Origin: Giardia intestinalis
Lineage: Eukaryota
Length of the DNA: 64,000 nt
Strand: one strand, 5' to 3'
Assembly (NCBI GenBank): GCA_000002435.2
Contig: CM018791.1
Below, one piece after another: positions 3,760 through 23,777 of the stretch. The translations under genes and the position numbers were made by a program. The notes below the pieces were generated by a model. That model did no database searches. It was not told where the DNA came from and saw only the letters and a program-made list of their open reading frames with translations. The number at the start of each line of letters is the position of its first letter. Position 1 is the first letter of the stretch.

Positions 3760-4890
3760 ATGTCCAGTCATGATCCGCTGACTCCGACCATTCTCCAGCT
3801 CCACGCGGAACAAGCTAACTATACAGTCAATGGAATTGCCTGGATTCCTCAGTCTGCCAGATTGCTCACCGTTGGAATGACTTCGAGAGGCACAGGGCCT
3901 GTTTCCATCTGGGAGATGAAGAACCAGAAGCTGTCTGTACAATCATCGTGCGAGCATGTGCACGCTGTTAAATGTGTGAGTTTCGGGGCATCAATTAGCC
4001 CGAAGCGGGAGTTCGCCATCGGAGACCATAATGGGGGGTTGGGCGTGTTTGATATTGAGCGTCTCAAAACCCCCATCTTCGCTGCCAAGGCTCATGATGG
4101 AATGGTGCATTGTCTTGACGCGTTTGGTGGGAAGAATCCTGCCGCATATGGCGCCCCAGAAATCGTCACGGGCGGTTCTGATGGCGTTGTCAACGTATGG
4201 GACATAAGGCACCCCACGCCTGTTGTGCGCCTTCGTCCCAACTTGGAGTCTGCTTTGGATGTCGGTTACAAGGATGAAGGCTATGTACGGGTTTATCCAG
4301 AATGCTGGGCCGTATCTTTTGGAGGAGCTTCCTCGCCTACCCATAGATATATCGCCATGGGATATGATAACGGTGATTTGAAGGTTCTTGATTTGCGCGA
4401 GCAGCGTTTAATATACGAGCAGCACTTCCCTAACGGGATTGTTGGGATAGACTACGATAGGCCAGATATCGCTCCCAACAAACTTGTAGCTTCAACCTTA
4501 CAAGGACATGCGTACATAATTGATCAGCGAACATTCCACCAAACGGAGCACTATGCACTGCTAGATTATAAGCCATTTGGTGCTGACTCAACGGCGACTC
4601 TCTGGCGTGTGAGTCACTCCCCGTCATCTCGAGACGTTTTCGTAACTTGTGGTGGGGGACGTTTAGCCCTCTGTAAGTACGAGCCCCCTGCTGAACGCAC
4701 CCGTAAGCTTGAAGACGGCAGTGAGGTCGGCGTAATGGGAACCTGTAAAACAATATGCGACATTCCTGTCAGCCAACAAACTATCACAACCCTATGTTGG
4801 AATAGAGAGAAGCATGGATTGCTAGGATGGAGCGGTGTCGACCAGACTGTCAGTGTAGGCTTTGTCACTAACCTTAGTTCTCTCGAATAA
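3760..4890 (+). CDS. WD40-repeat protein (376 aa)
   Basis: ATG at 3760 is preceded by 'gtgataaaaaa'. WD-repeat signatures GGSDGVVNVWDIRH and GYDNGDLKVLDLRE are present. Confidence 0.7.
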   Translation: MSSHDPLTPTILQLHAEQANYTVNGIAWIPQSARLLTVGMTSRGTGPVSIWEMKNQKLSVQSSCEHVHAVKCVSFGASISPKREFAIGDHNGGLGVFDIERLKTPIFAAKAHDGMVHCLDAFGGKNPAAYGAPEIVTGGSDGVVNVWDIRHPTPVVRLRPNLESALDVGYKDEGYVRVYPECWAVSFGGASSPTHRYIAMGYDNGDLKVLDLREQRLIYEQHFPNGIVGIDYDRPDIAPNKLVASTLQGHAYIIDQRTFHQTEHYALLDYKPFGADSTATLWRVSHSPSSRDVFVTCGGGRLALCKYEPPAERTRKLEDGSEVGVMGTCKTICDIPVSQQTITTLCWNREKHGLLGWSGVDQTVSVGFVTNLSSLE

Positions 4891-7262
4891 GTCATATATT
4901 GCTGAGTCTTTTACCTGAAAGTGTGTCAGGACCCGCACGAGTAAATCGCAGGGCATCCGGCGTGGCAGGGCGCCACCCTTCGGGGGCTCGTCCTCAAGGG
5001 GCGGCCATAGCGGGATTGACGCCCTGACCGTCGAGTCTGTGCAGGAGCTGATAGCGTCATTCAAATGGCCTTCAGGCCTGGGAAGCCCCCTCTGGCCACC
5101 GTGTGCGAGATGCCTTGTCGCACAGTGCAGGCGCGTGATAGCAGCTGACAGAGCCGGCGCAAGTTGCAGCCGAGCTGTGGCTCTTGCGCCTCTCCGAAGC
5201 AGGGCGACAGTGTCTAGAAGGCGCGAGGTTCCCGCGGTTCATCTGGAGCCAGCCTTCCCCGCGGGTGCCGGAGGCTACTCCAAGCCAGCCGGGGGTGTCA
5301 CAGAACAAGCATCTTGAGGGCTCCCTAGGTGCAGTGGCAAAGGGACATCCACTGCTTCTTCGCCAGCGGCTTGCCCGGTGGACCACAGGGCCTCCTAGGC
5401 CGCCAAGCGCGAACACAGCTGCGATGAGTGGCTACTGTACGCCATTGTAACACGAGGTAGATGTGCAGGACGTCAGAGGCGTGCTGAGGAAGGCCTCTTT
5501 GTTCTTTGGCTTTCTATGCAGCTGTCCCTGGTAAGGATGTTGAGCCCATGCTCACAAGTCACGGCCCCTTTGAGAGTGACCAAAGCTGGTACTCAAACAG
5601 AGATAGATGGCTGCCTTGCAGATCTCGAATCGCTGCGCATGCCGGCCCAGAGAGGCCCCGATCAGCCCGTCACTAGGGACGAGGATCTCAGCATAGAAAT
5701 CGCCAAAGCCTCCCGCGCCTCGGATGGACCCAGGCGATGGTAATACGGGGTTGAGGGCCCCGCTACACCCAGGCAGACTAAGCACTGCCTCTGAGCATGA
5801 CATCAGGTCAGGGCCCTGTCGCAGATAGAGGGGCGAGGGTAGAAGCCAGCCGAGGCGGAGCAGCTGCATAGACGGGAGCGCAGGTTATTATGGCAGCAGA
5901 CTTCCACAGACGAGGGAGCCCGCGCTCTACTCCAGGATGAAACAGCGACGCCCCAGAGTGCGGCCCCGAACCATGCTGCACCCCTCCTTTTGTGGCGCAG
6001 GAAGACTGCATGCACTTCAACCACGATGCACCCGGCCTTGAATACTGTGCGGAAAGACGGGCGGCCAGTGCGATTCATGCGACGCAAGGAAGATGCCTCG
6101 CCTTCTGGTGCCCTACAATGCGGGGAACATAGCCCTCTGCGCACGGGCTGCCTGCTTAAGGACGGCAAGCACATGGAGCCAGGCGAGAAGAACCGGGCCT
6201 TGATAGCGGCACGGCTGTCTTCAAGGGAAGGGTGATCTCTTGTCTCTTTAAGCAAGACGTGCTGGATCGCACAAGCTTGCGATTGGGTGAGGAAGGCTTC
6301 TGCATGCAACTCTCCGACGCAGCCCAACTGCAAACAGGCGGCAGCGAAAGGACCACGGGTTCCAGTCGTGCAGAAAGAGGATGCGCCTTTCCGAGGTTAC
6401 ACGTAGCCATCGGGCGGGGGCGTTCTCTGCAGATGCTACGTGCTATGTAGGGTCGTGTCGAACCGAAGGACCACTCTTAGATGAGCCAGACCAAGGTGCC
6501 CCCACCCACGCGAGACGGGCCTGTCAAATATATGGCATGCCTGCGAAAGCGAGTGCTGACAGACGGGGGCCTTGGGGGTAGATCTGGCATCCTAGCCCAG
6601 AGAGTGAACGAGGGCGGCCCGCGATACTTGTCCAGCTGAAGTGTGAACGCTATGATGTCTTAGGTTGGACAAGCGGTTCTTAGTGCCTCCCTGAGAGGCT
6701 GTCGAGGAGGCGCTTTTGGATGAGGGGACGGCCCCAGCCAGGCAGACGTGATCACAGAAGAAGGGGCGCTGGAAGCCGGAACAGTAGCTGACGACTGCGT
6801 GTCTGCGCAGTGCAGTGCCCACTGCTGTCAGCCGGCACACGGCGGTCGTCAGGACGCAGAGCTGCAGAGTGCTGGAGGCGCCGGGCGAGGCCAGCCTCGC
6901 TCATGGGATAGTGGCTGCCTGAGCCCCGCAATCCTGCAAGTCTCTGGACGATGGCAACAAGAGGCTTTCTGTGGCACGCGTCTGTCAGGATGGCGCACTC
7001 TGGCCAGACTAATAGTGATGGGATCCAGGACCCAAAAAAGCAATCTGCCTGGATGGCGGTGTGCATCCCAGAGTCGGCGCCGTCTCTCGTGTCCGGCCCT
7101 GTGCCACTTCACGAACATCACGATCGCTGTGTCCCCCACGATGGTCACTCAGACAATCAGACAGATTACAGGATACGATAGCTATGGGTGTCAAGGGCCA
7201 CGAGCACTGGTGACTCTTCTCTGTATTCCGGTAGGACCTTGTAAGAGCATAGCGGTAGACGC

Positions 7263-7269
7263 GTTTACT
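7263..7269 (-). terminator. Giardia polyadenylation signal AGTAAAC, 12 nt downstream of the VSP stop
   Basis: Matches the AGTRAAY consensus. It is mirrored at 17662..17668. Confidence 0.7.
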
Positions 7270-7281
7270 ACCTAAGTACAT

Positions 7282-9381
7282 CTACGCTTTGCCTCTGCAG
7301 ATGAACCACCAGCAGAGGAAGCCAACGAGACCCCCAACGACGACGATGACTGCGACGGAGATGCCGGCTATGGCACCTGTGCTGAGCCCGCTCTTGTTCG
7401 TGCTTCCGCCAGTATTGTCGCCGGTATTATCATCCGTTTCGAAACATATGAACTTGCCGTTAACAGGTGTCGCGCACTGCCTGCATCCAGCCAGCCCCTC
7501 GGAGCACTTTCTGCACGGCCCATTACTGCTACTCTCCTTGTAATATCCAGGAGCACATACCTTGCATGTAGTAGCACCGGCTTCGCAGGTGTAGCAACTT
7601 TCGTGGCATTTCGTGCAGGCACTGCCAACCTTCACATATCCGTCCATACACCTAGAACAGTCCTTAGTGGTGGTGCATTCAGCGCACCCAGTGTAGCAAG
7701 TCACAAGGCTCTCGCCTGTCAGGCTAAATCCTTCTTCCGGAGTCTTGCAGATTCCGCCTGTACTCTGCGCACTCAAGCACACTGTCGACCCCGGAAGCTG
7801 GCTGGTGGAGTAGCAGCCGCCGTTCATCTTGAAGAAGCCGTCTGCGCAGACATTGCACACGCCACCGGTAATGCTTCCATCTTTGCACTTATCTGTGCGA
7901 CTGGCTTTAACAGCACAGACGCCGTTCTGGGGATACTCGTTGTTTTGACTACAGACAGAGCAGTATTTTGTCCCCTCAACAGTCAGACCGCACTCCCTGC
8001 ACTTGCCTGTGCCTGTGCCCGCCGCGCACTCGGCCCCACATGTGCCAGTGTTTCCTGTGGATCCGTAGGTGAGCGTGCTTCCAGACTTACAGCTTGTGCA
8101 ATCATTGGCAGTATTTCCGCTACATGTCTTACAGCTGGAATCGCAAGGGGAGCACGCTTCGCCGTAGAAGCCGTCCTTACAGAGACCGCACCCGCCATTT
8201 TCACTGCACGCGAGACAGTTGGCGACCTCGCACTTCTTGCAGACCCTCTTGTTGCCCTCTGTGCTACTGTAGTAGCCTAGAATATATTCGCAGTGGTCTA
8301 TGCACTGGTTTGTTGGCGTCAGATACTTGTTGGACAGACATTCGGTGCAGATCTCTTTGTTTGTTTGTGCACCACTGCATGCCTTACAATCCTGAGTACT
8401 GCATGGATTTGAAGGGGAATCATTTGGCACGCATTGTGTTTCTTCTTCGTTAAGCTTAAATCCATCATTGCACGTGCAAGTATTCTCGGTCTTGGCTTCT
8501 GAGTTATCAGGGCAGCTACTAATGCACGACTTCTTTCCGAGTCCAAATACCATATTTTCCTTGCACGCTGTGCAGGTAACGGAGGTGTCACTTTTGGTGC
8601 ATGTTTTGCAGTTCTCAAACGTTCCTGCCGTGCACGGCTTGCAACTCTTAGGCTCGGTATCATCTGGGTAGAGGGTAGAATCGGTGGAGCATTGATTTCC
8701 TTCTACACATATCCCCGTTAGACTACCGCTTTCCTTCTTTAAATACATCTTACTGGTAGCCTTGCACTTGCTGCACTTCTTTGTGGTTGTCGCCTCTGTA
8801 CATGTAGCGCAGTTCTCGTCGCCGCAAGCTATGCAGGTCGTAGTGCCTGCGCCGAAATAGCCTTCATCACACGCGGTGCATGTAGCAGGGCCAGTATTGC
8901 TTGGAGGATTACATGTTTTACATTGATCTACACCTTGATATTGATCTGCCCCCGTCGTGTCATTACAGGAGATGCACGATTGCTTATTAGCGGCTGCCAC
9001 TGGACTCTTAAAGAATCCTTCCACGCAATCCTTGCAGACTCCTGTTACTTTACCAACTGTCGCCCCTCCTGCTGGGTCGGCACAGATAAGCCCGCCCAAT
9101 TCGCCAGCAAATTCATAACATCCGCCCTTGTACATGAAGTATCCATCGCCGCAAGAGCCACACTTTCCTTGAGCAGGGGAAGCGCATTTAGCAGCTGCTT
9201 GGTCAGTCCCTGCTGGTACACATTCTCCATCAATAAGGTGGTCTGTTTCGGTTTTACACTGTGTGCAAACTTCCGTTTTGCCAATCATATCACACTCACC
9301 ATCTTTACACTTACTTGCAGTTGGCCCACTGCACGATGCTGCAAGAGCACTTATCAAAAGGCAGGGAGCTAGTAGCAACAT
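7282..9381 (-). CDS. vsp: variant-specific surface protein (VSP), 699 aa, copy L
   Basis: Signal peptide MLLLAPCLLISALAAS; more than 40 CXXC motifs; GGCY motifs; one C-terminal transmembrane helix; invariant CRGKA tail. The start is set at the ATG at 9381, because the ORF-track start at 9468 is a TTG. Confidence 0.92.
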   Translation of the reverse strand: MLLLAPCLLISALAASCSGPTASKCKDGECDMIGKTEVCTQCKTETDHLIDGECVPAGTDQAAAKCASPAQGKCGSCGDGYFMYKGGCYEFAGELGGLICADPAGGATVGKVTGVCKDCVEGFFKSPVAAANKQSCISCNDTTGADQYQGVDQCKTCNPPSNTGPATCTACDEGYFGAGTTTCIACGDENCATCTEATTTKKCSKCKATSKMYLKKESGSLTGICVEGNQCSTDSTLYPDDTEPKSCKPCTAGTFENCKTCTKSDTSVTCTACKENMVFGLGKKSCISSCPDNSEAKTENTCTCNDGFKLNEEETQCVPNDSPSNPCSTQDCKACSGAQTNKEICTECLSNKYLTPTNQCIDHCEYILGYYSSTEGNKRVCKKCEVANCLACSENGGCGLCKDGFYGEACSPCDSSCKTCSGNTANDCTSCKSGSTLTYGSTGNTGTCGAECAAGTGTGKCRECGLTVEGTKYCSVCSQNNEYPQNGVCAVKASRTDKCKDGSITGGVCNVCADGFFKMNGGCYSTSQLPGSTVCLSAQSTGGICKTPEEGFSLTGESLVTCYTGCAECTTTKDCSRCMDGYVKVGSACTKCHESCYTCEAGATTCKVCAPGYYKESSSNGPCRKCSEGLAGCRQCATPVNGKFICFETDDNTGDNTGGSTNKSGLSTGAIAGISVAVIVVVGGLVGFLCWWFICRGKA

Positions 9382-10039
9382 TGTGGCTCTGCTCAGATTG
9401 TTAGGTACATGCGAATGGGGAACCATTCGTAACCTGACCTCTAGCCATCCAATGCTAGAGCTTACCAATCCAGTAGCATAGCAATTACTTTAGGAATGCT
9501 GATCTATTTATAGAGTACATCACACAAAATAACTATATGACGTTTACTTAGGTAGCCGATGCATCAGTTATCGTATCATTATAGATTTATAGGTTGCACC
9601 ATAAAAGTTATGCGCAAACCTCCACATAGATGCCTAAGGCCACAAGTCGAAGACGAAAGGCAGAAGCTAAAAAGCAATTCCCCGTGACTCTTGACCCCCA
9701 CTTTTGCACCGTCCCCATTCGATGCAGGATGCCTCATCATCCTGTCCTTTCAAGTCTCTATGCGTGATCCGTGGCCTTGTGTTCCGCACTGTGCCTTGCA
9801 TCCTGGTAGTCACCTCCACCGGGTCCTTGCCAGCGGGACCGACGGTCTCACAGCGATCGCGTATGACAGAGCAGTCACCATCTGATGTGCGAGCCCTGTG
9901 ATAGGCCGTGATGTTGGAAGGCGACATCGGTCAAAGAGGAGGCATAGCCACACATTACGAGCCACGATGACATGACACATTGCATAGCATCGTGATATAT
10001 GCGTGCATAACCGGTACACCAATAGGCATAGAAACAGCA

Positions 10040-11450
10040 CACCAGTGCTACCAGGTCATGATGACCACTCTACCCACCAGTTATTTTTAAGACTGTGCTA
10101 CTGGAGCCTACCTACAGGCGTAGTCCAGAGACTTCACAAGTAAGTCTCATCCAAGTCATGGCCAGTGTGGAGACAAGGGTTGATCGTTGATGGTATATTA
10201 AGGGAATTTCCCTCCATTTGTATATTAGAGTCTCTTGTATTCCTCGGTCGCTTCATGCGATGTGCGTGTCCAGGGGTGCTCGTGTGTCTGTCCAGGGTTC
10301 AGACCTTTGCAAGGACACACGTTGTCCATTAGTATGCCTCGCTTTTTAATCTGCCGTCTGGTGAACGAGCCTGGGTTGTCACTTCCTTTTCAATAGAAGT
10401 CTCCTCTGTCGCGACGGCTGCTGTCGAGGTCTAGCTTTACTGGCTGGGGTCGTCTCTCGGTGTCCGTCCAGCCGTGGTCCCGGAGGCCGGCGTTCCCTCC
10501 TGTTCGTAGTCCCCCAGGTCAGTGGGTCCAGTCGACAGTTAGAAGCAGGCCGGCAGGAGGAGTTGCCAGGTGGACGCCACAGGGTAGTGAAGGCCAGACA
10601 GAGCGCTCCCGGCGTCGCTGGGCCCCTTGAACTTAATTTACTCTCCACTTCACCGGGGTGGGGTTGTCCCTTGCTACCTGAGCGACCTCCCATGCGAGCT
10701 ACTACCGCCCTGGACAGGTGGATCTCCCGCTTACTCCCAAACAGAGTCCAGAACCCAAAATCCAAACCTAGAATCCGGTGCCGTAATTCCGGCGGAAAAA
10801 GACGCCCTAACGTCCAGCCTTCATCAAACAACAGACCCGCGGCTGCTCCCATGAAAGCGCCACCGAGGAAACCTCATAGAACCCTGAAGCGAAAAGCCAA
10901 GAAGGCACCCAGATGATTTACTCCACCCACCGGTTGCTTCCAGTGGTGTGCTGCTGGGGCCCTCGCCTGCAGGTATGGTCCAGAGATCTCACGGGTAAGC
11001 TCTTGCTCAGTCCCTGACTAGTCCGGAGACGAGGGTTGGTCGTGTATCAATATAGATACCACAGTGGTGGTAGGGAGGAGCTATCTGCGTTCCTCGGCTA
11101 TTCTACAGGAGTACACTCAGACTGGATGTGCACAACGGTTCTTTCAGAGATCAAGCCGTCCTGCAGGCTCGCTGGTCTATTAGGGTGCCTCTCCTTGTTC
11201 TCCCTTCACGGTTGGTGAAGCTCTGGTCTTTGTTGTCATTCTCAATACTGTCCATGTAGATCAGCAGCAGCTATCAGGACTCTCTCCACTGGCTGGGATT
11301 CCACTCGATTGTGTGTCCAGTCTTTGCCCCTTCTCGGTCGTTGTCGACAGGTCCCAGGGGTGGATTCATTCGGTTGTCAGAAGTAGGATGACAGGAGGCG
11401 GTCGCTCTGGGTGGCCAGGCTTTCGGCCCGGTCGCGTCTGATCAGCTCCG
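10040..11450. repeat. diverged tandem direct repeat, period ~850-865 bp (~1.6 units)
   Basis: 10040..10270 aligns with 10905..11135, and 10780..10905 aligns with ~11330..11450, at roughly 70-75% identity. Shared blocks include 'ccacccacc', 'caggcgtagtccagagacttcacaagtaag' versus 'caggtatggtccagagatctcacgggtaag', and 'ttcctcgg'. Confidence 0.6.
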
Positions 11451-13224
11451 TCAGGTGCTCGTTCGCCTCTGCAGCCATGTAGGCGATGGCGAAGGCAGCC
11501 CGGACAGAGGTCCACGTGGAGCTCCTCGAGGTGCCCCTTGGACTGGGGTGGAGGGAGCCGTCCGTCCCATGATGATCGGGAGCGTCCCGTCCCTGTACTT
11601 CTTGACCTTCTCGTTGTAGTAGGCGTCCATCTGGCGGGGCTGGATGACGCCCACGTCCACTGCCTTGCACTTGTCGACGAGCCAGATGTCGGGCTTCTGG
11701 TTCTGATCTGAGGTGGCTGTGGGTCTTGACTTCCAGCTCCGGTTGAGCTTCCCCGAGACGCGGAGGCACAGGCACGTGACGATCATGTCGTGCCTCGTGG
11801 CAGCCCGGGCAGGTGCCTCTTTCTGCGCCATGATCGAGCCGCCCTTCTCCTTCAGAGCCCTTTCCTCCTCGGTCAGCACGCCGCACATCTGCAGACAGTA
11901 CGTCGCCACTCTGTCCGGAAGCTGGTGTGCGCGTGAGGAGGCGGTTGGAGTAGGCCCCTTCCCTTGCAGTGCCTGGCCGTCCACCGACAGCTCCACCGGG
12001 TCTCTGGTCCCCTTGTTGACGTCCAGGGAGGCCCACACCCTCCGCAGCTCGTCGTGGTAGAACCCAGGCATGAGCAGGCCCAGGCCGCCCTTCTCCTTCG
12101 GTACGCCAGGAAGTCGACCAGGCAATCGCAGCTTCTGCTGGTTAGTGCTGAAGCTTTGTGCGACGTCTGTCAGCTCCTCGTAGTCCGCCTTGTCCGAGGT
12201 GATCTCGACCAGGGGGGCGTAGTTCACCATCGGGATCACACAGAGTGACACCAGGATGAGTCTCTGGTGGGTGGTTATGGGTGCTCTCTCGATCTTCCTC
12301 AGGGCAGTCTCAGCACCTGCGATGGCCTTTGGGGCGAGGCTTGCAGGAGTGGGGGACGCCAGGTGGTTGAGGAAGGTCACCTCCTCGCCCGCCATGGTGG
12401 ACTTGCATTGTCGCTCCTGATCGTCAGGCCCATGGCGGCAGCCTCTGCTGTGGCCAGCTGTGTTATCACATCTGCTGGGTGCCCTTCGTCGTGGAGCGCC
12501 ACGATGTCATCGCTAGGCAAGGAAGGTGATGCCCCTCTCCCTGAGGCGTCTCAGGAGGCGCTCGATGGCCATGCAGAAGAGGAACGTGCTGAGCGGGCTG
12601 CCCTGGGGGACGCCGCAGACCTCGCACTTCACGTCCCGGCTGTGCCTCAGGTCGAGGAAGTCCCCGATGTAGTCGACCAGGACCTTCGGGACGCCCGCCT
12701 CGTTCAGGGCTCTGGCGACCTCTGCCCTCGGGAGGGAGTTGAAGGCATTCTTTATGTCGAAGGAGACGGCATGCATCCCCCGCCTGCTGATGAGCTCGTG
12801 GGCCCTCCTCACGCCTACCGCGTACGCGTTCTGCTTGAAGGCGATCTGTTCGCATGAGAGGTAGCTGGCATGCCTGACCAGCCGCTTCGGCAGGACGCAG
12901 TGGAAGATGTTCGTGACCATCCGCCTATCGCGATCGGGGGTATCCATCGGACTCCTTCGGGATGAGGATCGCCCGGAACTCGAACATGGCCGTCGCCTCG
13001 GGGTGGGTGGTCAGCTCGTTGTACGCCTGCGTGAGGTATTTCACGAAGCTGTCGCTCTGCTTCATCGCCTTGAGCTGGACCGACCCGAGGCCAAACACGC
13101 CTGAGGCCTTCTTGTTGAGAGTCCCAACAGGGCCTTCCTCATTTCCTCCTCGGTTGCCGCTCCAGTCCATCGAGTTCATCGATGGAGGGTAGTCAAGGCC
13201 AACGTAGCCTTCGGGAGGACGCAT
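11451..13224 (-). pseudogene. frameshifted reverse-transcriptase ORF of the retroelement
   Basis: The RT motifs are spread over ORFs 12925..13224, 12513..12947 and 11451..12395 in different frames, with motif C in a third frame at ~12470..12500. Confidence 0.75.
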
Positions 13225-13526
13225 GGGTGTAGCGCGCTGAGGGCGGCCTTGGCCTTCTCTGGCTTGTCTACCATGGGTGTGTCATCAAGGGCGCGGAGAG
13301 CCTTAGCAACTGCCCCGAAGCTCAGCGCGTTATTCACCCTGTTTGCTATCCGGCGTCTCGCCTTCTCGGGGTCCGGGTCTGCCTTACTCTGGGACTGCTC
13401 CGTGGTGTTGCTTGAGTCCTCCAGGCCTCCTACCAGGGCGTTCAGGCCCCTGATAGCGGGGAGCGCTACCCCAGTCCCGGCTTGCTCGATGCTCGCGATC
13501 GTGCGCGCACCCTGGTGGATGAGCAT
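11451..13526 (-). mobile_element. degenerate non-LTR retrotransposon remnant (reverse transcriptase plus REL-type endonuclease), GilD/GilM/GilT-like, non-functional
   Basis: Minus-strand fragments in at least four different frames carry RT motif 1 FRAILIPK, motif A FDIKNAFNSL, motif B GVPQGSPLSTFLF, motif C (SDDIVAL, in a shifted frame), the thumb KGGLGLL, and a C-terminal KPDIWLV...AVDVGV (PD-(D/E)xK-like) after a Cys cluster. At least three frameshifts are present. Confidence 0.8.
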
Positions 13527-14025
13527 GGCAGCTGTCCGGTTCGGTATATGGGCCGGAATGATCAGCTTGTCGTCGCCCGGTACTCTGTGTCTGTCGTCGT
13601 TTGCTTCTCTCAGGTGCTCGGTCAGTTGCTTGGCGCTCTCACATGGTAGGCCACAGAGCCAGCGTGTGTGTCCTGCCGAGAGGGCAAACGTCTTCGGAGT
13701 GGTCTCCCAAGTAGAGACTCAAGGCTTGCTGTTTGGGGTCTCGGAAGTACGATCTTGCGTTCATGATGTGGATCGGGTCCTTGCGGGCTCTCCTTCGTTT
13801 CAGGCCCAGCTGTGCACACGCCCGCGGAACAACCGAGGAACGCAGATAGCTCCTCCCGTCCACTACTGTGGTCATTATCATATTCCATAGCCAACCCCCG
13901 TCTTCGGACATCGCCAAAAATTGAGCGGGAATTTACTCGCGAGATTTGCGGACAGCGCCCGCAGGCGAGGGCCCCAGCAGCACACCACTGGAAGCAACCG
14001 GTGGGTGGAGTAAATCATCTGGGTG

Positions 14026-14891
14026 CCTTCTTGGCTTTTCGCTTCAGGGTTCTATGAGGTTTCCTCGGTGGCGCTTTCATGGGAGCAGCCGCGGGTCTGT
14101 TGTTTGATGAAGGCTGGACGTTAGGGCGTCTTTTTCCGCCGGAATTACGGCACCGGATTCTAGGTTTGGATTTTGGGTTCTGGACTCTGTTTGGGAGTAA
14201 GCGGGAGATCCACCTGTCCAGGGCGGTAGTAGCTCGCATGGGAGGTCGCTCAGGTAGCAAGGGACAACCCCACCCCGGTGAAGTGGAGAGTAAATTAAGT
14301 TCAAGGGGCCCAGCGACGCCGGGAGCGCTCTGTCTGGCCTTCACTACCCTGTGGCGTCCACCTGGCAACTCCTCCTGCCGGCCTGCTTCTAACTGTCGAC
14401 TGGACCCACTGACCTGGGGGACTACGAACAGGAGGGAACGCCGGCCTCCGGGACCACGGCTGGACGGACACCGAGAGACGACCCCAGCCAGTAAAGCTAG
14501 ACCTCGACAGCAGCCGTCGCGACAGAGGAGACTTCTATTGAAAAGGAAGTGACAACCCAGGCTCGTTCACCAGACGGCAGATTAAAAAGCGAGGCATACT
14601 AATGGACAACGTGTGTCCTTGCAAAGGTCTGAACCCTGGACAGACACACGAGCACCCCTGGACACGCACATCGCATGAAGCGACCGAGGAATACAAGAGA
14701 CTCTAATATACAAATGGAGGGAAATTCCCTTAATATACCATCAACGATCAACCCTTGTCTCCACACTGGCCATGACTTGGATGAGACTTACTTGTGAAGT
14801 CTCTGGACTACGCCTGTAGGTAGGCTCCAGTAGCACAGTCTTAAAAATAACTGGTGGGTAGAGTGGTCATCATGACCTGGTAGCACTGGTG
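14026..14891. repeat. mirrored copy of tandem-repeat unit U1
   Basis: Reverse complement of 10040..10905 inside the right arm. Confidence 0.6.
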
Positions 14892-15549
14892 TGCTGTTTC
14901 TATGCCTATTGGTGTACCGGTTATGCACGCATATATCACGATGCTATGCAATGTGTCATGTCATCGTGGCTCGTAATGTGTGGCTATGCCTCCTCTTTGA
15001 CCGATGTCGCCTTCCAACATCACGGCCTATCACAGGGCTCGCACATCAGATGGTGACTGCTCTGTCATACGCGATCGCTGTGAGACCGTCGGTCCCGCTG
15101 GCAAGGACCCGGTGGAGGTGACTACCAGGATGCAAGGCACAGTGCGGAACACAAGGCCACGGATCACGCATAGAGACTTGAAAGGACAGGATGATGAGGC
15201 ATCCTGCATCGAATGGGGACGGTGCAAAAGTGGGGGTCAAGAGTCACGGGGAATTGCTTTTTAGCTTCTGCCTTTCGTCTTCGACTTGTGGCCTTAGGCA
15301 TCTATGTGGAGGTTTGCGCATAACTTTTATGGTGCAACCTATAAATCTATAATGATACGATAACTGATGCATCGGCTACCTAAGTAAACGTCATATAGTT
15401 ATTTTGTGTGATGTACTCTATAAATAGATCAGCATTCCTAAAGTAATTGCTATGCTACTGGATTGGTAAGCTCTAGCATTGGATGGCTAGAGGTCAGGTT
15501 ACGAATGGTTCCCCATTCGCATGTACCTAACAATCTGAGCAGAGCCACA

Positions 15550-17649
15550 ATGTTGCTACTAGCTCCCTGCCTTTTGATAAGTGCTCTTGCAGCATCGTGC
15601 AGTGGGCCAACTGCAAGTAAGTGTAAAGATGGTGAGTGTGATATGATTGGCAAAACGGAAGTTTGCACACAGTGTAAAACCGAAACAGACCACCTTATTG
15701 ATGGAGAATGTGTACCAGCAGGGACTGACCAAGCAGCTGCTAAATGCGCTTCCCCTGCTCAAGGAAAGTGTGGCTCTTGCGGCGATGGATACTTCATGTA
15801 CAAGGGCGGATGTTATGAATTTGCTGGCGAATTGGGCGGGCTTATCTGTGCCGACCCAGCAGGAGGGGCGACAGTTGGTAAAGTAACAGGAGTCTGCAAG
15901 GATTGCGTGGAAGGATTCTTTAAGAGTCCAGTGGCAGCCGCTAATAAGCAATCGTGCATCTCCTGTAATGACACGACGGGGGCAGATCAATATCAAGGTG
16001 TAGATCAATGTAAAACATGTAATCCTCCAAGCAATACTGGCCCTGCTACATGCACCGCGTGTGATGAAGGCTATTTCGGCGCAGGCACTACGACCTGCAT
16101 AGCTTGCGGCGACGAGAACTGCGCTACATGTACAGAGGCGACAACCACAAAGAAGTGCAGCAAGTGCAAGGCTACCGGTAAGATGTATTTAAAGAAGGAA
16201 AGCGGTAGTCTAACGGGGATATGTGTAGAAGGAAATCAATGCTCCACCGATTCTACCCTCTACCCAGATGATACCGAGCCTAAGAGTTGCAAGCCGTGCA
16301 CGGCAGGAACGTTTGAGAACTGCAAAACATGCACCAAAAGTGACACCTCCGTTACCTGCACAGCGTGTAAGGCAAATATGGTATTTGGACTCGGAAAGAA
16401 GTCGTGCATTAGTAGCTGCCCTGATAACTCAGAAGCCAAGACCGAGAATACTTGCACGTGCAATGATGGATTTAAGCTTAACGAAGAAGAAACACAATGC
16501 GTGCCAAATGATTCCCCTTCAAATCCATGCAGTACTCAGGATTGTAAGGCATGCAGTGGTGCACAAACAAACAAAGAGATCTGCACCGAATGTCTGTCCA
16601 ACAAGTATCTGACGCCAACAAACCAGTGCATAGACCACTGCGAATATATTCTAGGCTACTACAGTAGCACAGAGGGCAACAAGAGGGTCTGCAAGAAGTG
16701 CGAGGTCGCCAACTGTCTCGCGTGCAGTGAAAATGGCGGGTGCGGTCTCTGTAAGGACGGCTTCTACGGCGAAGCGTGCTCCCCTTGCGATTCCAGCTGT
16801 AAGACATGTAGCGGAAATACTGCCAATGATTGCACAAGCTGTAAGTCTGGAAGCACGCTCACCTACGGATCCACAGGAAACACTGGCACATGTGGGGCCG
16901 AGTGCGCGGCGGGCACAGGCACAGGCAAGTGCAGGGAGTGCGGTCTGACTGTTGAGGGGACAAAATACTGCTCTGTCTGTAGTCAAAACAACGAGTATCC
17001 CCAGAACGGCGTCTGTGCTGTTAAAGCCAGTCGCACAGATAAGTGCAAAGATGGAAGCATTACCGGTGGCGTGTGCAATGTCTGCGCAGACGGCTTCTTC
17101 AAGATGAACGGCGGCTGCTACTCCACCAGCCAGCTTCCGGGGTCGACAGTGTGCTTGAGTGCGCAGAGTACAGGCGGAATCTGCAAGACTCCGGAAGAAG
17201 GATTTAGCCTGACAGGCGAGAGCCTTGTGACTTGCTACACTGGGTGCGCTGAATGCACCACCACTAAGGACTGTTCTAGGTGTATGGACGGATATGTGAA
17301 GGTTGGCAGTGCCTGCACGAAATGCCACGAAAGTTGCTACACCTGCGAAGCCGGTGCTACTACATGCAAGGTATGTGCTCCTGGATATTACAAGGAGAGT
17401 AGCAGTAATGGGCCGTGCAGAAAGTGCTCCGAGGGGCTGGCTGGATGCAGGCAGTGCGCGACACCTGTTAACGGCAAGTTCATATGTTTCGAAACGGATG
17501 ATAATACCGGCGACAATACTGGCGGAAGCACGAACAAGAGCGGGCTCAGCACAGGTGCCATAGCCGGCATCTCCGTCGCAGTCATCGTCGTCGTTGGGGG
17601 TCTCGTTGGCTTCCTCTGCTGGTGGTTCATCTGCAGAGGCAAAGCGTAG
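15550..17649 (+). CDS. vsp: variant-specific surface protein (VSP), 699 aa, copy R
   Basis: Same features as copy L. It differs by three SNPs, two of them nonsynonymous (S/G at 'KATS/GKMY' and E/A at 'ACKE/ANMV'). ATG at 15550. Confidence 0.92.
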   Translation: MLLLAPCLLISALAASCSGPTASKCKDGECDMIGKTEVCTQCKTETDHLIDGECVPAGTDQAAAKCASPAQGKCGSCGDGYFMYKGGCYEFAGELGGLICADPAGGATVGKVTGVCKDCVEGFFKSPVAAANKQSCISCNDTTGADQYQGVDQCKTCNPPSNTGPATCTACDEGYFGAGTTTCIACGDENCATCTEATTTKKCSKCKATGKMYLKKESGSLTGICVEGNQCSTDSTLYPDDTEPKSCKPCTAGTFENCKTCTKSDTSVTCTACKANMVFGLGKKSCISSCPDNSEAKTENTCTCNDGFKLNEEETQCVPNDSPSNPCSTQDCKACSGAQTNKEICTECLSNKYLTPTNQCIDHCEYILGYYSSTEGNKRVCKKCEVANCLACSENGGCGLCKDGFYGEACSPCDSSCKTCSGNTANDCTSCKSGSTLTYGSTGNTGTCGAECAAGTGTGKCRECGLTVEGTKYCSVCSQNNEYPQNGVCAVKASRTDKCKDGSITGGVCNVCADGFFKMNGGCYSTSQLPGSTVCLSAQSTGGICKTPEEGFSLTGESLVTCYTGCAECTTTKDCSRCMDGYVKVGSACTKCHESCYTCEAGATTCKVCAPGYYKESSSNGPCRKCSEGLAGCRQCATPVNGKFICFETDDNTGDNTGGSTNKSGLSTGAIAGISVAVIVVVGGLVGFLCWWFICRGKA

Positions 17650-17661
17650 ATGTACTTAGGT

Positions 17662-17668
17662 AGTAAAC
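17662..17668 (+). terminator. polyadenylation signal AGTAAAC after the VSP stop
   Basis: AGTRAAY consensus, 12 nt after TAG. Confidence 0.7.
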
Positions 17669-20114
17669 GCGTCTACCGCTATGCTCTTACAAGGTCCTAC
17701 CGGAATACAGAGAAGAGTCACCAGTGCTCGTGGCCCTTGACACCCATAGCTATCGTATCCTGTAATCTGTCTGATTGTCTGAGTGACCATCGTGGGGGAC
17801 ACAGCGATCGTGATGTTCGTGAAGTGGCACAGGGCCGGACACGAGAGACGGCGCCGACTCTGGGATGCACACCGCCATCCAGGCAGATTGCTTTTTTGGG
17901 TCCTGGATCCCATCACTATTAGTCTGGCCAGAGTGCGCCATCCTGACAGACGCGTGCCACAGAAAGCCTCTTGTTGCCATCGTCCAGAGACTTGCAGGAT
18001 TGCGGGGCTCAGGCAGCCACTATCCCATGAGCGAGGCTGGCCTCGCCCGGCGCCTCCAGCACTCTGCAGCTCTGCGTCCTGACGACCGCCGTGTGCCGGC
18101 TGACAGCAGTGGGCACTGCACTGCGCAGACACGCAGTCGTCAGCTACTGTTCCGGCTTCCAGCGCCCCTTCTTCTGTGATCACGTCTGCCTGGCTGGGGC
18201 CGTCCCCTCATCCAAAAGCGCCTCCTCGACAGCCTCTCAGGGAGGCACTAAGAACCGCTTGTCCAACCTAAGACATCATAGCGTTCACACTTCAGCTGGA
18301 CAAGTATCGCGGGCCGCCCTCGTTCACTCTCTGGGCTAGGATGCCAGATCTACCCCCAAGGCCCCCGTCTGTCAGCACTCGCTTTCGCAGGCATGCCATA
18401 TATTTGACAGGCCCGTCTCGCGTGGGTGGGGGCACCTTGGTCTGGCTCATCTAAGAGTGGTCCTTCGGTTCGACACGACCCTACATAGCACGTAGCATCT
18501 GCAGAGAACGCCCCCGCCCGATGGCTACGTGTAACCTCGGAAAGGCGCATCCTCTTTCTGCACGACTGGAACCCGTGGTCCTTTCGCTGCCGCCTGTTTG
18601 CAGTTGGGCTGCGTCGGAGAGTTGCATGCAGAAGCCTTCCTCACCCAATCGCAAGCTTGTGCGATCCAGCACGTCTTGCTTAAAGAGACAAGAGATCACC
18701 CTTCCCTTGAAGACAGCCGTGCCGCTATCAAGGCCCGGTTCTTCTCGCCTGGCTCCATGTGCTTGCCGTCCTTAAGCAGGCAGCCCGTGCGCAGAGGGCT
18801 ATGTTCCCCGCATTGTAGGGCACCAGAAGGCGAGGCATCTTCCTTGCGTCGCATGAATCGCACTGGCCGCCCGTCTTTCCGCACAGTATTCAAGGCCGGG
18901 TGCATCGTGGTTGAAGTGCATGCAGTCTTCCTGCGCCACAAAAGGAGGGGTGCAGCATGGTTCGGGGCCGCACTCTGGGGCGTCGCTGTTTCATCCTGGA
19001 GTAGAGCGCGGGCTCCCTCGTCTGTGGAAGTCTGCTGCCATAATAACCTGCGCTCCCGTCTATGCAGCTGCTCCGCCTCGGCTGGCTTCTACCCTCGCCC
19101 CTCTATCTGCGACAGGGCCCTGACCTGATGTCATGCTCAGAGGCAGTGCTTAGTCTGCCTGGGTGTAGCGGGGCCCTCAACCCCGTATTACCATCGCCTG
19201 GGTCCATCCGAGGCGCGGGAGGCTTTGGCGATTTCTATGCTGAGATCCTCGTCCCTAGTGACGGGCTGATCGGGGCCTCTCTGGGCCGGCATGCGCAGCG
19301 ATTCGAGATCTGCAAGGCAGCCATCTATCTCTGTTTGAGTACCAGCTTTGGTCACTCTCAAAGGGGCCGTGACTTGTGAGCATGGGCTCAACATCCTTAC
19401 CAGGGACAGCTGCATAGAAAGCCAAAGAACAAAGAGGCCTTCCTCAGCACGCCTCTGACGTCCTGCACATCTACCTCGTGTTACAATGGCGTACAGTAGC
19501 CACTCATCGCAGCTGTGTTCGCGCTTGGCGGCCTAGGAGGCCCTGTGGTCCACCGGGCAAGCCGCTGGCGAAGAAGCAGTGGATGTCCCTTTGCCACTGC
19601 ACCTAGGGAGCCCTCAAGATGCTTGTTCTGTGACACCCCCGGCTGGCTTGGAGTAGCCTCCGGCACCCGCGGGGAAGGCTGGCTCCAGATGAACCGCGGG
19701 AACCTCGCGCCTTCTAGACACTGTCGCCCTGCTTCGGAGAGGCGCAAGAGCCACAGCTCGGCTGCAACTTGCGCCGGCTCTGTCAGCTGCTATCACGCGC
19801 CTGCACTGTGCGACAAGGCATCTCGCACACGGTGGCCAGAGGGGGCTTCCCAGGCCTGAAGGCCATTTGAATGACGCTATCAGCTCCTGCACAGACTCGA
19901 CGGTCAGGGCGTCAATCCCGCTATGGCCGCCCCTTGAGGACGAGCCCCCGAAGGGTGGCGCCCTGCCACGCCGGATGCCCTGCGATTTACTCGTGCGGGT
20001 CCTGTCATATCTACTAGCAGATCACTATGGCAAAGTACTAAAACTACCCGGTGGATGAAGCAGGTTTTCTCATAGATCTGTCATCAAACAAACAAGTGCA
20101 ACGATATCTTTACA

Positions 20115-23100
20115 TTAGTCAATCATCCCAAGACTCTTGTCCAGCTGAGCTATTAGATTCCGTATATCTTCTTTAGCCATTGTGGTAGGCGGCATACTGG
20201 GTTGGGATCCAGTTGTGCTAAGAGGATACACAGACACACTAGTACTCGGTCGGGTGAAGGAAGTCATGCTTGGTGGATTGGTTCCGTAGCCTGGGCTGCT
20301 TAGGCCAATGTTCAAAGGACCCGCAGTTAATGAGGTTGGTGGGGCCCCAGTAATATTGGCTATGTCTCGCGCAAGGCCACTTTCAATAGACGTTCTCTGT
20401 TCCAAAAGATTAATTCTGCTTTCTGCTTTGCGGCGCCGTTCCTCTGTATCAAAAAGCATCCGATCTTCAACAGCCTTCCTAGCCTTGATCTCTTCCTCTA
20501 GTTGCAAGCTAAGGCGGCCTATCATTTCGTCTCGCTCTACTAGACCATTATGTTTAGCAGTAAGATCGCTTGTCAAATCGCGGATCTTAACTTGTAATTG
20601 CTCGATTTCTTTGTTGAGAAAGTTCACCATGTTGTCCATGTCTCTACGCTGATTATCATTTATGCTCAGCTGTCCTTCGAAGTTTGCAGACATGACCTTG
20701 TACTGAGCGATTGTGTTAGTCATCTCGCGGATCTGAAGGTTGAGTTCATTGATATTGAGCTCATATTGTTTTGCACTTTCTGACGCCCTCTCTAGCTCTC
20801 TCTTGTACATCTCGACGTCTGAGCGGATCTGATCATTGTCTTTATGTAGCTCCTGGTTCTGATATTCTGCGTTATTCAGCTTGAACTTTATTTGATCTCT
20901 GTCCTTGACAACGGATTCATACTCATCAATGGCCACGAAATCGGTCTTCATCTCAGTCTGCATTCCCGAAAAGCGTGTTCCGAGATCGAGTAGTTGGCAA
21001 TTGAGGTCGTTGATTTTGTTACGGAGAATCTCGTTTTCGCCCTGAACCTGTGTGACAAAGGACTCCTTTTCGGTGAGTCCATTATACAGATTATCATTTC
21101 TCTTGATCATGTACTTGCAGATATCCATTGCCAACTCTGCAAGAGTGAGCGGTCGCTGTACATATATGCCCAAGCTTATACCACCTAGTGTGCGACCAGA
21201 CATGATACTTGTGTAGCGGAGAGAAGAGTATACAGCCGTTGTAGGATTCGGTGCAAGAGCCATGACGTCGAGAAGCTTCACAATGGCGCGAGCCCGATCG
21301 TCTCGTGCAGACATAGCAAAACCACCATACCTGTAGTCTGAAAGAAGACGCACGTGATTCTGAAGGGCCTGGCAGAACTTGGCAGATAGCTCGAGGATGG
21401 GTGGCGGTGTCACTTCAACTCCGGCTAAAGTCGTCGTGGTTCCACCTATCGCAGTTCCGGAAAGGCCACGGGTGCTCGCCAGTGAACTATATGTGGTGGT
21501 GCCAAGAGGCCCAGCTGTTGCTGTTCCGGAGAAGGTCGCATTAGTGGGAGGGAGGAGAGGAATCGAGTTGACCTGGAGCAAGTTGTTAAGTCTTTCTTCA
21601 ACGGATCGGGTGTAGCTTCTATGATCGCCCATTGTTTGCTCTAAGCGTGACAAAAAGGTGATAACGTGGACGGCAACACGTAACTTTGACACAGTCCTGT
21701 TAAGACGGTTTTTCTTTGGATCAGAAGACTCCTCGTAACGAAGAAGAATCTCTCTTGTACTTGATATCTCGAATAGGGCTCGGTTAAGAAGTGTGGCAGC
21801 CAGCTCTTTGGAACAATGGATGCGCTTCAGCCTGTCCTGATCATCGCTGACCTCGCGCAATAAACAAAGAATTGTCTGGCCCGAAACAATCAAATTCGTA
21901 GTTAAAGTATTGTTTTCTGTTTCTAACTGCATCAAGCGTCCCGTTTGCTCCACCAGCTTCCGCTTCCCGCTTTCCAGTTCAGCAAGGCTGTCTGTAGTAT
22001 TGTTTGATAGCTCGCGGTTCTGAAGCTCCAATTGTGTATACTTTGTTCCCAGCTCGTCATTCTCCCTATTGAGAAGCTGAATCTCTTGCTGAAGCTTAGT
22101 TATATATGTTGCTGCATTGGAAGCAACATCTGATACCGATCCAGAACCCTTCGTACTACTCAAGTCTCCGGGAAGCATCGACTGTAGTTGGAGATTGGTC
22201 GCAGTCATGTTGATTCCTGTACTAGCCCCGAATGACTTACTCATTGCTGTACCTGATAAGTCTCCTTGCATGGCCAGGGCGTTCGCGCTTGAGGAAAGAT
22301 ATTTCTTTGATGAAGCCAGACTAGCCACGAGCATTTGAATGGCGCTATTAGATTCAACACGCAGCTTTTCTAGCTCTGTTGCAATCTTGTCGCGCTGAAT
22401 CTTCAACTCATCCATGTCTTTGGAGAGTGAGTCATAACCGGAATTGTTCCGGGCCATGGCTGTCTCCATACGAGCCAGCTCGATCTGGAGGGCCTCCTTG
22501 GCATCCGAAAGCTCTATGTTCTCCCTACGCATGGCAGAGATGTTCTTCTCTGCCTTGAGACAGTCATCTTCCAAGGATTTGACTTTGCTGCATTCGGAGC
22601 GCAGCTTAGCCAGGACAGAACTAAAGCAAGAGTAAAGGCTAGTTTCACGGTACTTGTCTAAGTCTGTTGCCGCTTGTGTGGGGTCCTCATTGTTAATAAT
22701 ACATCTGGTATAGTTGCTTATGGCAATACCGGCCTCCCGCTCGCTAGTCAAATGTTGATCAAGAAAGTTTTTCTGATGAAGCAATTGTTCGTTCTCTTCC
22801 GTCAACAGACGCATCTTCTTGCGCAGTTGAGAGGCCTCATCGTCAAGGTTCTTGAAATAGTCCATACGCTTCTTTGTCTCGTTAGAGTCATTTTCCATAG
22901 CCTTCATCTTGGAATCGATGACACTCAGGTCACCACGCGCCTGCTGAAGCTCGGCTTTTGTTCTCATCCACTCTTCACTTTCTTCCTTGTATTTTTCGCG
23001 AAGCATTCTTAGGTCATCTTCTGCGTGCTTCTGCATATTTAACTTCAATTTCAAGTCATCAACCTCCACTTTTAACTGCTTGTTTAGTTCTTTAAGGCTG

Positions 23101-23777
23101 GAAATCTCGTGAGTTGCCGACTCATATCGCGCCGTATGGATCTCTAGATCCTGTGCAGCCTTTCGAGAGACCAAGCGCTCGTCCTGTAGCTCTATTTCGG
23201 TATTAGATAACTTGGTGGTCAGCTGCTTCAACTCCTCAGTGCGAGCTGTCAAGCGAGATTCAAGACGATGCACGAGGTCTTCACGACGGGCATAATCTTC
23301 TCGTAAGCTATTCACCTGAGCCTTTGCTTGCTGTAGGGCTTCGACCAGAGCTTGGCGCTCCCCTGCAGATTCTGCGACTGTGCGACGCAAAGCCATATCC
23401 TTCGACTTGAGCTCCGATGCTATGTGGGCATTATCGCGCTCAAGCGCAAGGGTCTTTAGCCGCGCATTGTTAAGCTCTTTGCCACGAGCTATAGACTCGC
23501 TTGTGACGCTATCCAGGTTAGATTGCATCGTGTGAAAAGCTGGCAGAGGAACTCCAAGAGCTTGGCCCCCTGCACCATCAAAGTGCTGCCGCGCTGCTGG
23601 TTTAATCACTAGCCCGCTCGGATCAGATGTTCCGTTTGGAACGCCTCCAATAGACGAAAAGGAGGCAGATGGGGGATTCAGAGATGACTCTGTAAGTCCT
23701 GTAGACATGCCTGTCAAGAGACTCTTGCGTGCGTTTAGCCGTTCCGCTATGCGATGGGCCAGGGTGGGGTCCGTCAT
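20115..23777 (-). CDS. large coiled-coil protein (1220 aa)
   Basis: ATG at 23777 is preceded by 'cgataaaaaacagaatttcttgt'. Long heptad-like stretches rich in E, K, L and Q, with Ser/Thr-rich patches. Confidence 0.7.
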   Translation of the reverse strand: MTDPTLAHRIAERLNARKSLLTGMSTGLTESSLNPPSASFSSIGGVPNGTSDPSGLVIKPAARQHFDGAGGQALGVPLPAFHTMQSNLDSVTSESIARGKELNNARLKTLALERDNAHIASELKSKDMALRRTVAESAGERQALVEALQQAKAQVNSLREDYARREDLVHRLESRLTARTEELKQLTTKLSNTEIELQDERLVSRKAAQDLEIHTARYESATHEISSLKELNKQLKVEVDDLKLKLNMQKHAEDDLRMLREKYKEESEEWMRTKAELQQARGDLSVIDSKMKAMENDSNETKKRMDYFKNLDDEASQLRKKMRLLTEENEQLLHQKNFLDQHLTSEREAGIAISNYTRCIINNEDPTQAATDLDKYRETSLYSCFSSVLAKLRSECSKVKSLEDDCLKAEKNISAMRRENIELSDAKEALQIELARMETAMARNNSGYDSLSKDMDELKIQRDKIATELEKLRVESNSAIQMLVASLASSKKYLSSSANALAMQGDLSGTAMSKSFGASTGINMTATNLQLQSMLPGDLSSTKGSGSVSDVASNAATYITKLQQEIQLLNRENDELGTKYTQLELQNRELSNNTTDSLAELESGKRKLVEQTGRLMQLETENNTLTTNLIVSGQTILCLLREVSDDQDRLKRIHCSKELAATLLNRALFEISSTREILLRYEESSDPKKNRLNRTVSKLRVAVHVITFLSRLEQTMGDHRSYTRSVEERLNNLLQVNSIPLLPPTNATFSGTATAGPLGTTTYSSLASTRGLSGTAIGGTTTTLAGVEVTPPPILELSAKFCQALQNHVRLLSDYRYGGFAMSARDDRARAIVKLLDVMALAPNPTTAVYSSLRYTSIMSGRTLGGISLGIYVQRPLTLAELAMDICKYMIKRNDNLYNGLTEKESFVTQVQGENEILRNKINDLNCQLLDLGTRFSGMQTEMKTDFVAIDEYESVVKDRDQIKFKLNNAEYQNQELHKDNDQIRSDVEMYKRELERASESAKQYELNINELNLQIREMTNTIAQYKVMSANFEGQLSINDNQRRDMDNMVNFLNKEIEQLQVKIRDLTSDLTAKHNGLVERDEMIGRLSLQLEEEIKARKAVEDRMLFDTEERRRKAESRINLLEQRTSIESGLARDIANITGAPPTSLTAGPLNIGLSSPGYGTNPPSMTSFTRPSTSVSVYPLSTTGSQPSMPPTTMAKEDIRNLIAQLDKSLGMID

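Follow-up and report, generated by a model that had tools for sequence, protein, structure and literature searches.

A VSP palindrome of Giardia intestinalis around a degenerate GilD/Genie-2-type retrotransposon, with transposon repeats as the diverged inner edge of its arms

The palindromes P1-P8 of the primate Y chromosome are reportedly kept by arm-to-arm gene conversion, and short inverted repeats prime the formation of palindromes in Tetrahymena rDNA and in the palindromic amplifications of yeast and mammals. Among non-LTR (non-long-terminal-repeat) retrotransposons, inverted repeats as long as 172 bp are said to be present in all copies of the Giardia element Genie 2. All of these bear on the locus described here, a 15-kb palindrome with two genes for variant-specific surface proteins (VSP), which lies in a 64,000-nucleotide stretch (hereafter the window) of contig CM018791.1 of the Giardia intestinalis assembly GCA_000002435.2. 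We consider it likely that this is an old VSP palindrome, homogenised by gene conversion, around a dead retrotransposon of the GilD/Genie-2 type that serves as its spacer, and that the terminal repeats of this element make up the diverged zone at the inner edge of the arms.

The closest described VSP loci are the 14 identical inverted vsp pairs of isolate WB reported by Adam et al. (2010), in which "2 to 4 kb of non-coding DNA" lies between the genes and the identity of the flanks ends at a point of "abrupt divergence" (PMC2996952). The pairs were read there as recent duplications and termed an "interesting, but cryptic observation", retrotransposons being unmentioned; for most of the tail-to-tail pairs the '3' divergence' was given as 486-559 nt (PMC2996952). 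The VSP pair of the present locus is not in the table of that study. GilD elements, in turn, have been described as lying in gene-poor regions and adjoining VSP genes (PMC2861651).

The arms and their inner edge

The spacer open reading frame (ORF) and both flanking proteins are identical to proteins of G. intestinalis WB (assemblage AI), the source of this DNA. The palindrome extends over positions 4927-20004 and consists of two 6-kb arms with one VSP gene each, set head to head, and a 3.1-kb spacer. Its parts are listed below; DH and P15 are isolates of assemblages AII and E, respectively.

4927..10910, no strand: left palindrome arm outside the transposon, the mirror of 14021-20004 with 3 mismatches
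7282..9468, minus strand: VSP gene copy 1, a 728-codon ORF with terminal CRGKA (Pfam PF03302 VSP, E = 3e-134)
10911..14020, minus strand: whole spacer, a degenerate non-LTR retrotransposon fitting the GilD/Genie-2 type, its ends uncertain by ~6 nt (10911-10917 / 14014-14020)
10911..11104, minus strand: 3' terminal inverted repeat of the element, with the outer 54-60 nt identical to the other end and a hyper-diverged patch from 10971 to ~11028
11073..11097, plus strand (partner 13833-13857, minus strand): conserved 25-mer GGGAGGAGCTATCTGCGTTCCTCGG at the inner end of the repeat
13827..14020, minus strand: 5' terminal inverted repeat of the element, with a scrambled patch at ~13867-13900 and otherwise close to the consensus
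14021..20004, no strand: right palindrome arm outside the transposon, which in DH and P15 is continuous with the right flank
15463..17649, plus strand: VSP gene copy 2, head to head with copy 1 and the mirror of 7282-9468

A repeat search returned an inverted repeat at 4924-11009 / 13922-20007 with 2912 nt between its halves, and a second inverted pair at 11021-11112 / 13818-13909 that is 76% complementary. In the mirror coordinates of the palindrome position i pairs with 24931 - i, and in a comparison on this basis the only mismatches outside 10970/13961 are at 4926, 8558, 8563 and 8754. The first of these marks the outer edge of the inverted repeat, the left outer junction being abrupt at 4926/4927, and over the 6044 positions of the arms proper (4927-10970 / 13961-20004) there are 3 differences. 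The resulting identity of 99.95% over 4927-10970 bears out the figure of ~99.9% outside 10970/13961 given in a preliminary description of the locus, which had been made from the letters of the DNA. The three internal differences (8558, 8563 and 8754; mirror 16373, 16368 and 16177) fall within 200 bp, all of them in the VSP coding region; the two VSP copies are 3 nt and 2 amino acids apart, with the nonsynonymous changes S239G and E304A.

Some long-read libraries are known to produce long perfect inverted repeats as artefacts, and a chimeric or hairpin-read palindrome in the reference has to be weighed for this reason. Against such an assembly artefact stand the 3 real differences between the arms, the independent short-read contigs that break at the arm boundary and the recovery of both junctions from other isolates, in 454 and in Illumina assemblies, and we give this explanation next to no weight. 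The ten WB-type short-read contigs that carry a WB-identical copy of the coiled-coil gene flanking the palindrome on the right all end 140 nt past its stop codon; in the one of them that was aligned to the window (L006) this end falls ~30 nt into the arm, where a contig should break if the repeat truly exists in two copies.

Inside 10970/13961 the gapped alignment of arm against arm continues to ~11104/13827. The zone thus delimited (10971-11104 / 13827-13960) is 71% identical including gap columns (100/140), and its local score of 87 was reached by 0/500 shuffles, with means of 15-19 and maxima of 29-32. The preliminary description was right that a further alignable zone exists here, though its identity, given there as ~70-80%, is 71%, and its length is 134 bp and not 160-200 bp. 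It had also quoted a 25-mer as shared perfectly by both sides, and GGGAGGAGCTATCTGCGTTCCTCGG does have two exact occurrences in the window, one at 11073-11097 (+) and one at 13833-13857 (-), where 0 are expected by chance. The gradual decay of identity toward the core that it reported is, however, contradicted by the identities per 25-column block, which from the outside to the core are 60, 60, 72, 72 and 88%: the profile steps from 100 down to 60%, rises to 88% and then falls abruptly to background. Farther in, 11105-11500 has no mirror similarity to the reverse complement of 13431-13826 (211/500 shuffles reach the score), and the weak mirror match found in the spacer interior, with a score of 36, is a trivial 37-nt GC-rich stretch.

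The spacer and its terminal repeats

The minus strand of the spacer (10911-14020) holds a reverse transcriptase (RT) frame with frameshifts and stops, in which two portions stand out:

12513..12947, minus strand: reverse transcriptase fragment (Pfam RVT_1, E = 1.9e-14)
11451..12395, minus strand: C-terminal ORF with the RT thumb and a putative restriction-like endonuclease region, 100% identical to XP_001705782.1, 'Reverse transcriptase/endonuclease, putative'

By eye, the C-terminal ORF contains CxxC, RHD and KPD...D..K motifs, and it had no match in Pfam or the PDB. A protein search with the spacer yielded 38 relatives, all fragmentary and exclusively from Giardia, most of them annotated as "Reverse transcriptase/endonuclease" or as hypothetical. 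Our comparison set comprised five paralogous copies from isolate DH (L001-L004 and L028), to which the WB spacer is 87-88% identical over its full length by BLAST and ~90-91% identical over aligned columns. The element copies are ~88-95% alike, and the ORFs of all DH copies are fragmented; in the PDB, R2 retrotransposon proteins are the top matches to the longest RT ORF left intact in a DH paralogue, at a weak E of 4e-4. An exact look-up of the WB spacer ORF gave no contig, and in other isolates no orthologue more than 96% identical was found. The spacer fits a single dead element of the GilD/Genie-2 type, a placement that draws on published descriptions of this family.

A multiple alignment of eight element ends defines a repeat of ~190 nt that runs from (ATCATCT)TTTACTCCACCCACCGG to just past the 25-mer. 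It places the ends of the WB element at 10911-10917 and 14014-14020, so that the outermost 54-60 bp at either end of the element still match perfectly. The DH copies at unrelated loci have such inverted ends as well, matching over 170 nt at 98% in L004, 137 nt at 96% in L002 and 119 nt at 87% in L028; in these three copies ~2.8 kb lies between the inverted ends, and the long arms are absent at those loci. The repeats of WB and L003 are more diverged than those of L004, L002 and L028, the inner part of the WB pair being 71% identical as against 93-95% in L002 and L004. This divergence is concentrated: the 3' repeat of WB has a patch of ~58 nt that is ~62% identical to the family consensus, in a variant shared with the distal repeat of L003, and the 5' repeat has a scrambled patch of ~30 nt, whereas outside both patches both WB repeats are consensus-like. 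It is because of these two patches that the WB zone looks diverged, and the step at 10970/13961 is the exact start of the 3' patch. The inner diverged zone belongs to the terminal inverted repeats of the element, of which it forms the inner 134 bp, and is not a decayed palindrome.

The opposite view, in which the 134-bp zone is the decayed inner part of the palindrome and the frequency of conversion falls toward the spacer, would account for a two-tier identity at the boundary of arm and spacer. Yet the same sequence flanks armless GilD copies at unrelated loci, identity climbs toward the core where it should fall, and each WB repeat has more in common with the family consensus (78-87%) than with its partner (71%), which makes this view very improbable. 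One-directional editing or deamination was considered as a cause of the diverged patch and rejected: its substitutions comprise 22 transitions and 6 transversions, with the four transition types about equally frequent. The 25-mer GGGAGGAGCTATCTGCGTTCCTCGG is the best-conserved block among eight repeat copies (those of L001-L004 included), in badly decayed ends too, and this conservation hints at a former functional site, which might have been, for example, a promoter or an RT recognition site.

The history of the repeats can be read from the L002 copy, which is bounded by an exact 17-bp target-site duplication, TCTACAGTCAAACCATA, at 8546-8562 and 11685-11701, and which is 5'-truncated, its 5' repeat being without the outer ~40 nt; L028 is 5'-truncated likewise. 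The duplication together with the truncation indicates that the repeats are part of the retrotransposed unit. A target-site duplication was also looked for in L004, L028 and WB, and none was found there. In its own right, the L002 duplication is direct evidence of past target-primed reverse transcription by a dead family with terminal inverted repeats. A Class II DNA transposon had been considered on account of those repeats and was discarded, since the sole domain found is a reverse transcriptase and 5' truncation with a 17-bp duplication is typical of retrotransposition.

Age and maintenance of the palindrome

The palindrome is bounded by two genes that allow the locus to be followed across assemblages:

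3760..4890, plus strand: left flanking gene, WD40 protein GL50803_3531 (Pfam WD40/beta-propeller; sequence identical to XP_001704350.1), ending 36 bp before the start of the left arm
20115..23777, minus strand: right flanking gene, 1220-aa coiled-coil protein GL50803_112112 (identical to XP_001705778.1; ~99% nucleotide identity to DH), with cluster members in WB, DH, GS, P15 and assemblage B

The preliminary description had proposed a comparison of orthologous loci in other assemblages, and this comparison, when run, gave a palindrome-free locus in B and the same outer junctions in AII and E. In assemblage B (GS, Logan; L005, L017-L019) the WD40 and coiled-coil genes are convergent and 34 bp apart, the flanking synteny is kept, and the whole 15-kb structure is absent. 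The 34-bp gap lies at 13663-13697 in both L005 and L017 and corresponds to window positions 4890 and 20115. Only the A+E lineage has this insertion, which consists of the palindrome and, on the side of the coiled-coil gene, ~95 nt of unique sequence.

In assemblage AII the left junction is present in a DH contig that reaches 480 bp into the arm (L020) and in an independent AII-type contig that reaches 4.85 kb into it (L023), while a further DH contig (L003) spans from the right flank through the entire arm. The left-anchored and right-anchored versions of the AII arm differ at 3/480 nt (L020) and 3/4854 nt (L023). To the WB arms, the AII arm is 95.4% identical, with 84-99% per 300-bp bin, as compared to ~99% in the adjacent unique flank. 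In assemblage E, the arms of P15 start at the same two junctions, have a length of no less than 398 nt and are identical to each other at 397/398 nt of the available sequence (99.75%; L016 13770-14167 against L025 11170-11567), although only their first ~155 nt can be aligned to WB. The P15 palindrome has had its cargo replaced after these ~155 nt, the frame being retained. Within genomes, the identity of the arms is hence 99.95% in WB, 99.4-99.94% in AII and 99.75% in P15.

By this comparison, the origin of the palindrome falls between the split from B and that of A and E, and its arms have since evolved in concert within each lineage. As they are near-identical within genomes and diverged between them, we conclude that arm-to-arm gene conversion, or an equivalent form of copying, has probably been at work. 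Of the two explanations offered in the preliminary description, an old palindrome with gene conversion holds for the 6-kb arms, given the junctions in AII and E, the identity within genomes and the absence of the palindrome from B; it does not extend to the inner zone, which is a transposon repeat. The other, a recent re-duplication in the WB lineage that made the 6-kb arms over an older diverged inverted repeat, could point to arms that differ at only 3/6044 positions, to the presence of an older inverted repeat (that of the transposon) at the inner edge and to a DH locus that at first seemed single-armed. An older repeat does exist, but it is a feature of the transposon, and the duplication is not recent: both junctions lie at the same nucleotides in AII (L020, L023, L003) and P15 (L025, L016), and re-duplication would require independent events with identical end points in three lineages, which is not credible. 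We regard it as improbable. The single DH arm and a WB-specific duplication, as first inferred from L003, were withdrawn, the WD40-arm junction being present in L020 and L023.

The outer 1.5 kb of the arms (18400-19900, mirror 5030-6530) are GC-rich (57-61%) and, between WB and DH, 85-94% identical per 300 bp, as against 96-99% in the rest of the arm and ~99% in the unique flank. Two of the ORFs in this segment were scanned against Pfam, with no match; no match came from Rfam, searched with the whole palindrome, or from a phage database.

In the mechanism that we favour, recurrent arm-to-arm gene conversion would homogenise the arms, and would reach at most 54-60 bp into the transposon repeat, stopping where identity drops to ~60%. 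Conversion would stop at the diverged patch because recombination needs homology, and heteroduplex rejection would end the tracts there. Since the outer 54 nt of the repeat agree at 96-98% with the consensus of the other copies, the perfect match of the two WB ends is by itself no proof of conversion inside the element, identity by descent being sufficient. As to how the palindrome came into being, the pre-existing repeats of the element may, speculatively, have nucleated it by fold-back priming or template switching; such a nucleation would explain why the arms adjoin both ends of the element exactly and symmetrically.

Taken as an account of the present boundary too, a fold-back origin becomes an alternative to conversion. 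A break near a solitary GilD copy would have let its repeats anneal within one strand, synthesis with its primer inside the repeat would have copied the flank outward into a second arm, and 10970/13961 would be the priming point and not the endpoint of conversion. Several features agree with this: the exact, symmetric junction of the arms with both element ends goes without a target-site duplication, in contrast to the 17-bp one of L002; perfect identity starts inside the repeat; the left outer junction is novel and abrupt, whereas the right arm is continuous into the flank; the WB 5' repeat is full-length, though those of L002 and L028 are 5'-truncated; and an unpaired loop, an old imperfect short repeat and perfect long arms match the anatomy of fold-back products. 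On the other hand, the palindrome goes back beyond the A/E split, and with the homogenisation of its arms from then on its present boundary need not be the original one, and the outer 54 nt, being consensus-like, would be near-identical anyway. In P15 and DH the comparison covers sequence from the arms of the palindrome, and it fits equally an element that landed in the middle of an already existing palindrome, with conversion coming later. We hold the fold-back account to be possible but doubtful, and the later landing of the element is likewise speculative.

Several observations weigh against an old, conversion-homogenised palindrome around a dead retrotransposon, most of them from DH, where contig AHGT01000021.1 (L003, 7945-11172) joins the arm to a different GilD copy that is 10% diverged from the WB spacer. 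This copy scores 0.898 against the WB spacer, with paralogues at 0.908-0.912, and DH thus shows no simple orthologue of the spacer. It lies in the opposite orientation along the contig path; its arm-proximal repeat is without the outer 59 nt and has a 12-nt filler, TTTACGCTGCTA, although the arm starts at the same base; and its far end adjoins the remnant of a VSP tail, beyond which comes DNA absent from the window. As for the arms, their full-length identity in AII comes from consensus contigs that may be collapsed, with only the outer 480 bp uniquely anchored on both sides in one isolate; gene conversion itself is deduced from the comparative pattern; and the GilD/Genie 2 assignment was made from published descriptions.

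The DH arms being identical, the path of the assembler through the arm is arbitrary, so that the apparent inversion may not be real. The VSP remnant comprises the last 25 codons, which are transmembrane-coding and end in ...GFLCWWFIYGRKA followed by the stop (score 100, reached by 0/500 shuffles), and the DNA beyond the DH element (L003 1-8000) was not found in the window. A corresponding VSP-tail remnant at the inner end of the WB arm was considered and is not significant (74/500 and 301/500 shuffles reach the score). The spacer nonetheless clearly differs between AI and AII, and this difference points to ectopic recombination among GilD copies.

Known systems and wider bearing

If the favoured reading is correct, at least one VSP palindrome dates from before the A/E split and was kept homogeneous in each lineage, contrary to the interpretation of such pairs as recent duplications (PMC2996952). 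The locus further illustrates that a two-tier identity at the edge of a palindrome can be the signature of a transposon and not a record of the age of the palindrome. We suggest, quite tentatively, that GilD elements may organise identical inverted VSP pairs in general: their repeats would seed fold-back duplications and then limit the inward reach of conversion between the arms, and read-through of the palindrome could feed hairpin RNA to Dicer and the RNA interference (RNAi) machinery. The Dicer/RNAi pathway has been implicated in VSP silencing. Were this general, a supposedly inert transposon family would be tied to the structure, the maintenance and possibly the regulation of the antigenic-variation repertoire, and the assembly breaks at inverted VSP loci would be accounted for. 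DH contig AHGT01000087.1 (L001, 1-1382) begins within a GilD copy whose 3' end is 396 nt from a VSP stop, the tail of the gene pointing toward the element. Adding the conserved repeat of 137-170 nt to these 396 nt gives 533-566 nt, close to the '3' divergence' of 486-559 nt (PMC2996952), which is a hint of GilD-centred tail-to-tail pairs.

The inverted vsp pairs of Adam et al. 2010 resemble the present locus in their near-identical inverted VSP ORFs, in flanks that are identical up to a divergence point, in a non-identical core of ~3 kb (2990 bp here) and in contigs that end there. They differ in that the ORFs are 5994 bp apart here (9468 to 15463) as against 2190-3847 bp, that the arms, with a length of 6 kb, extend 1.5 kb upstream of the start codon, and that the two copies are 2 amino acids apart. 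The spacer shares with GilD (Arkhipova & Morrison 2001) and Genie 2 (Burke et al. 2002) a length of ~3 kb, an RT followed by a putatively endonuclease-like C-terminus, degenerate copies, VSP neighbours and inverted repeats at the element ends, the best pair here measuring 170 nt; its role as the exact spacer of a VSP palindrome is absent from the literature available here.

Like the primate Y palindromes, the Giardia palindrome has arms at least 99.9% identical, a unique spacer, orthologues in diverged lineages and arms that are closer within lineages than between them. Unlike them, it is ~100x smaller, resides in an asexual-like polyploid protist and carries antigen genes, and its spacer is a transposon that supplies, with its own inverted repeats, the transition from arm to spacer. 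With palindromes primed by short repeats it has in common the unpaired loop, the imperfect old short repeat and the perfect long arms, an anatomy that would fit such an event in Giardia; its arms, though, stop after 6 kb at an internal junction and not at a chromosome end. We would file the locus under three known kinds at once, as a palindrome maintained by conversion, an inverted VSP pair and a copy of GilD/Genie 2; what it adds to them is a transposon that makes up the spacer exactly and a palindrome of ancient, not recent, origin.

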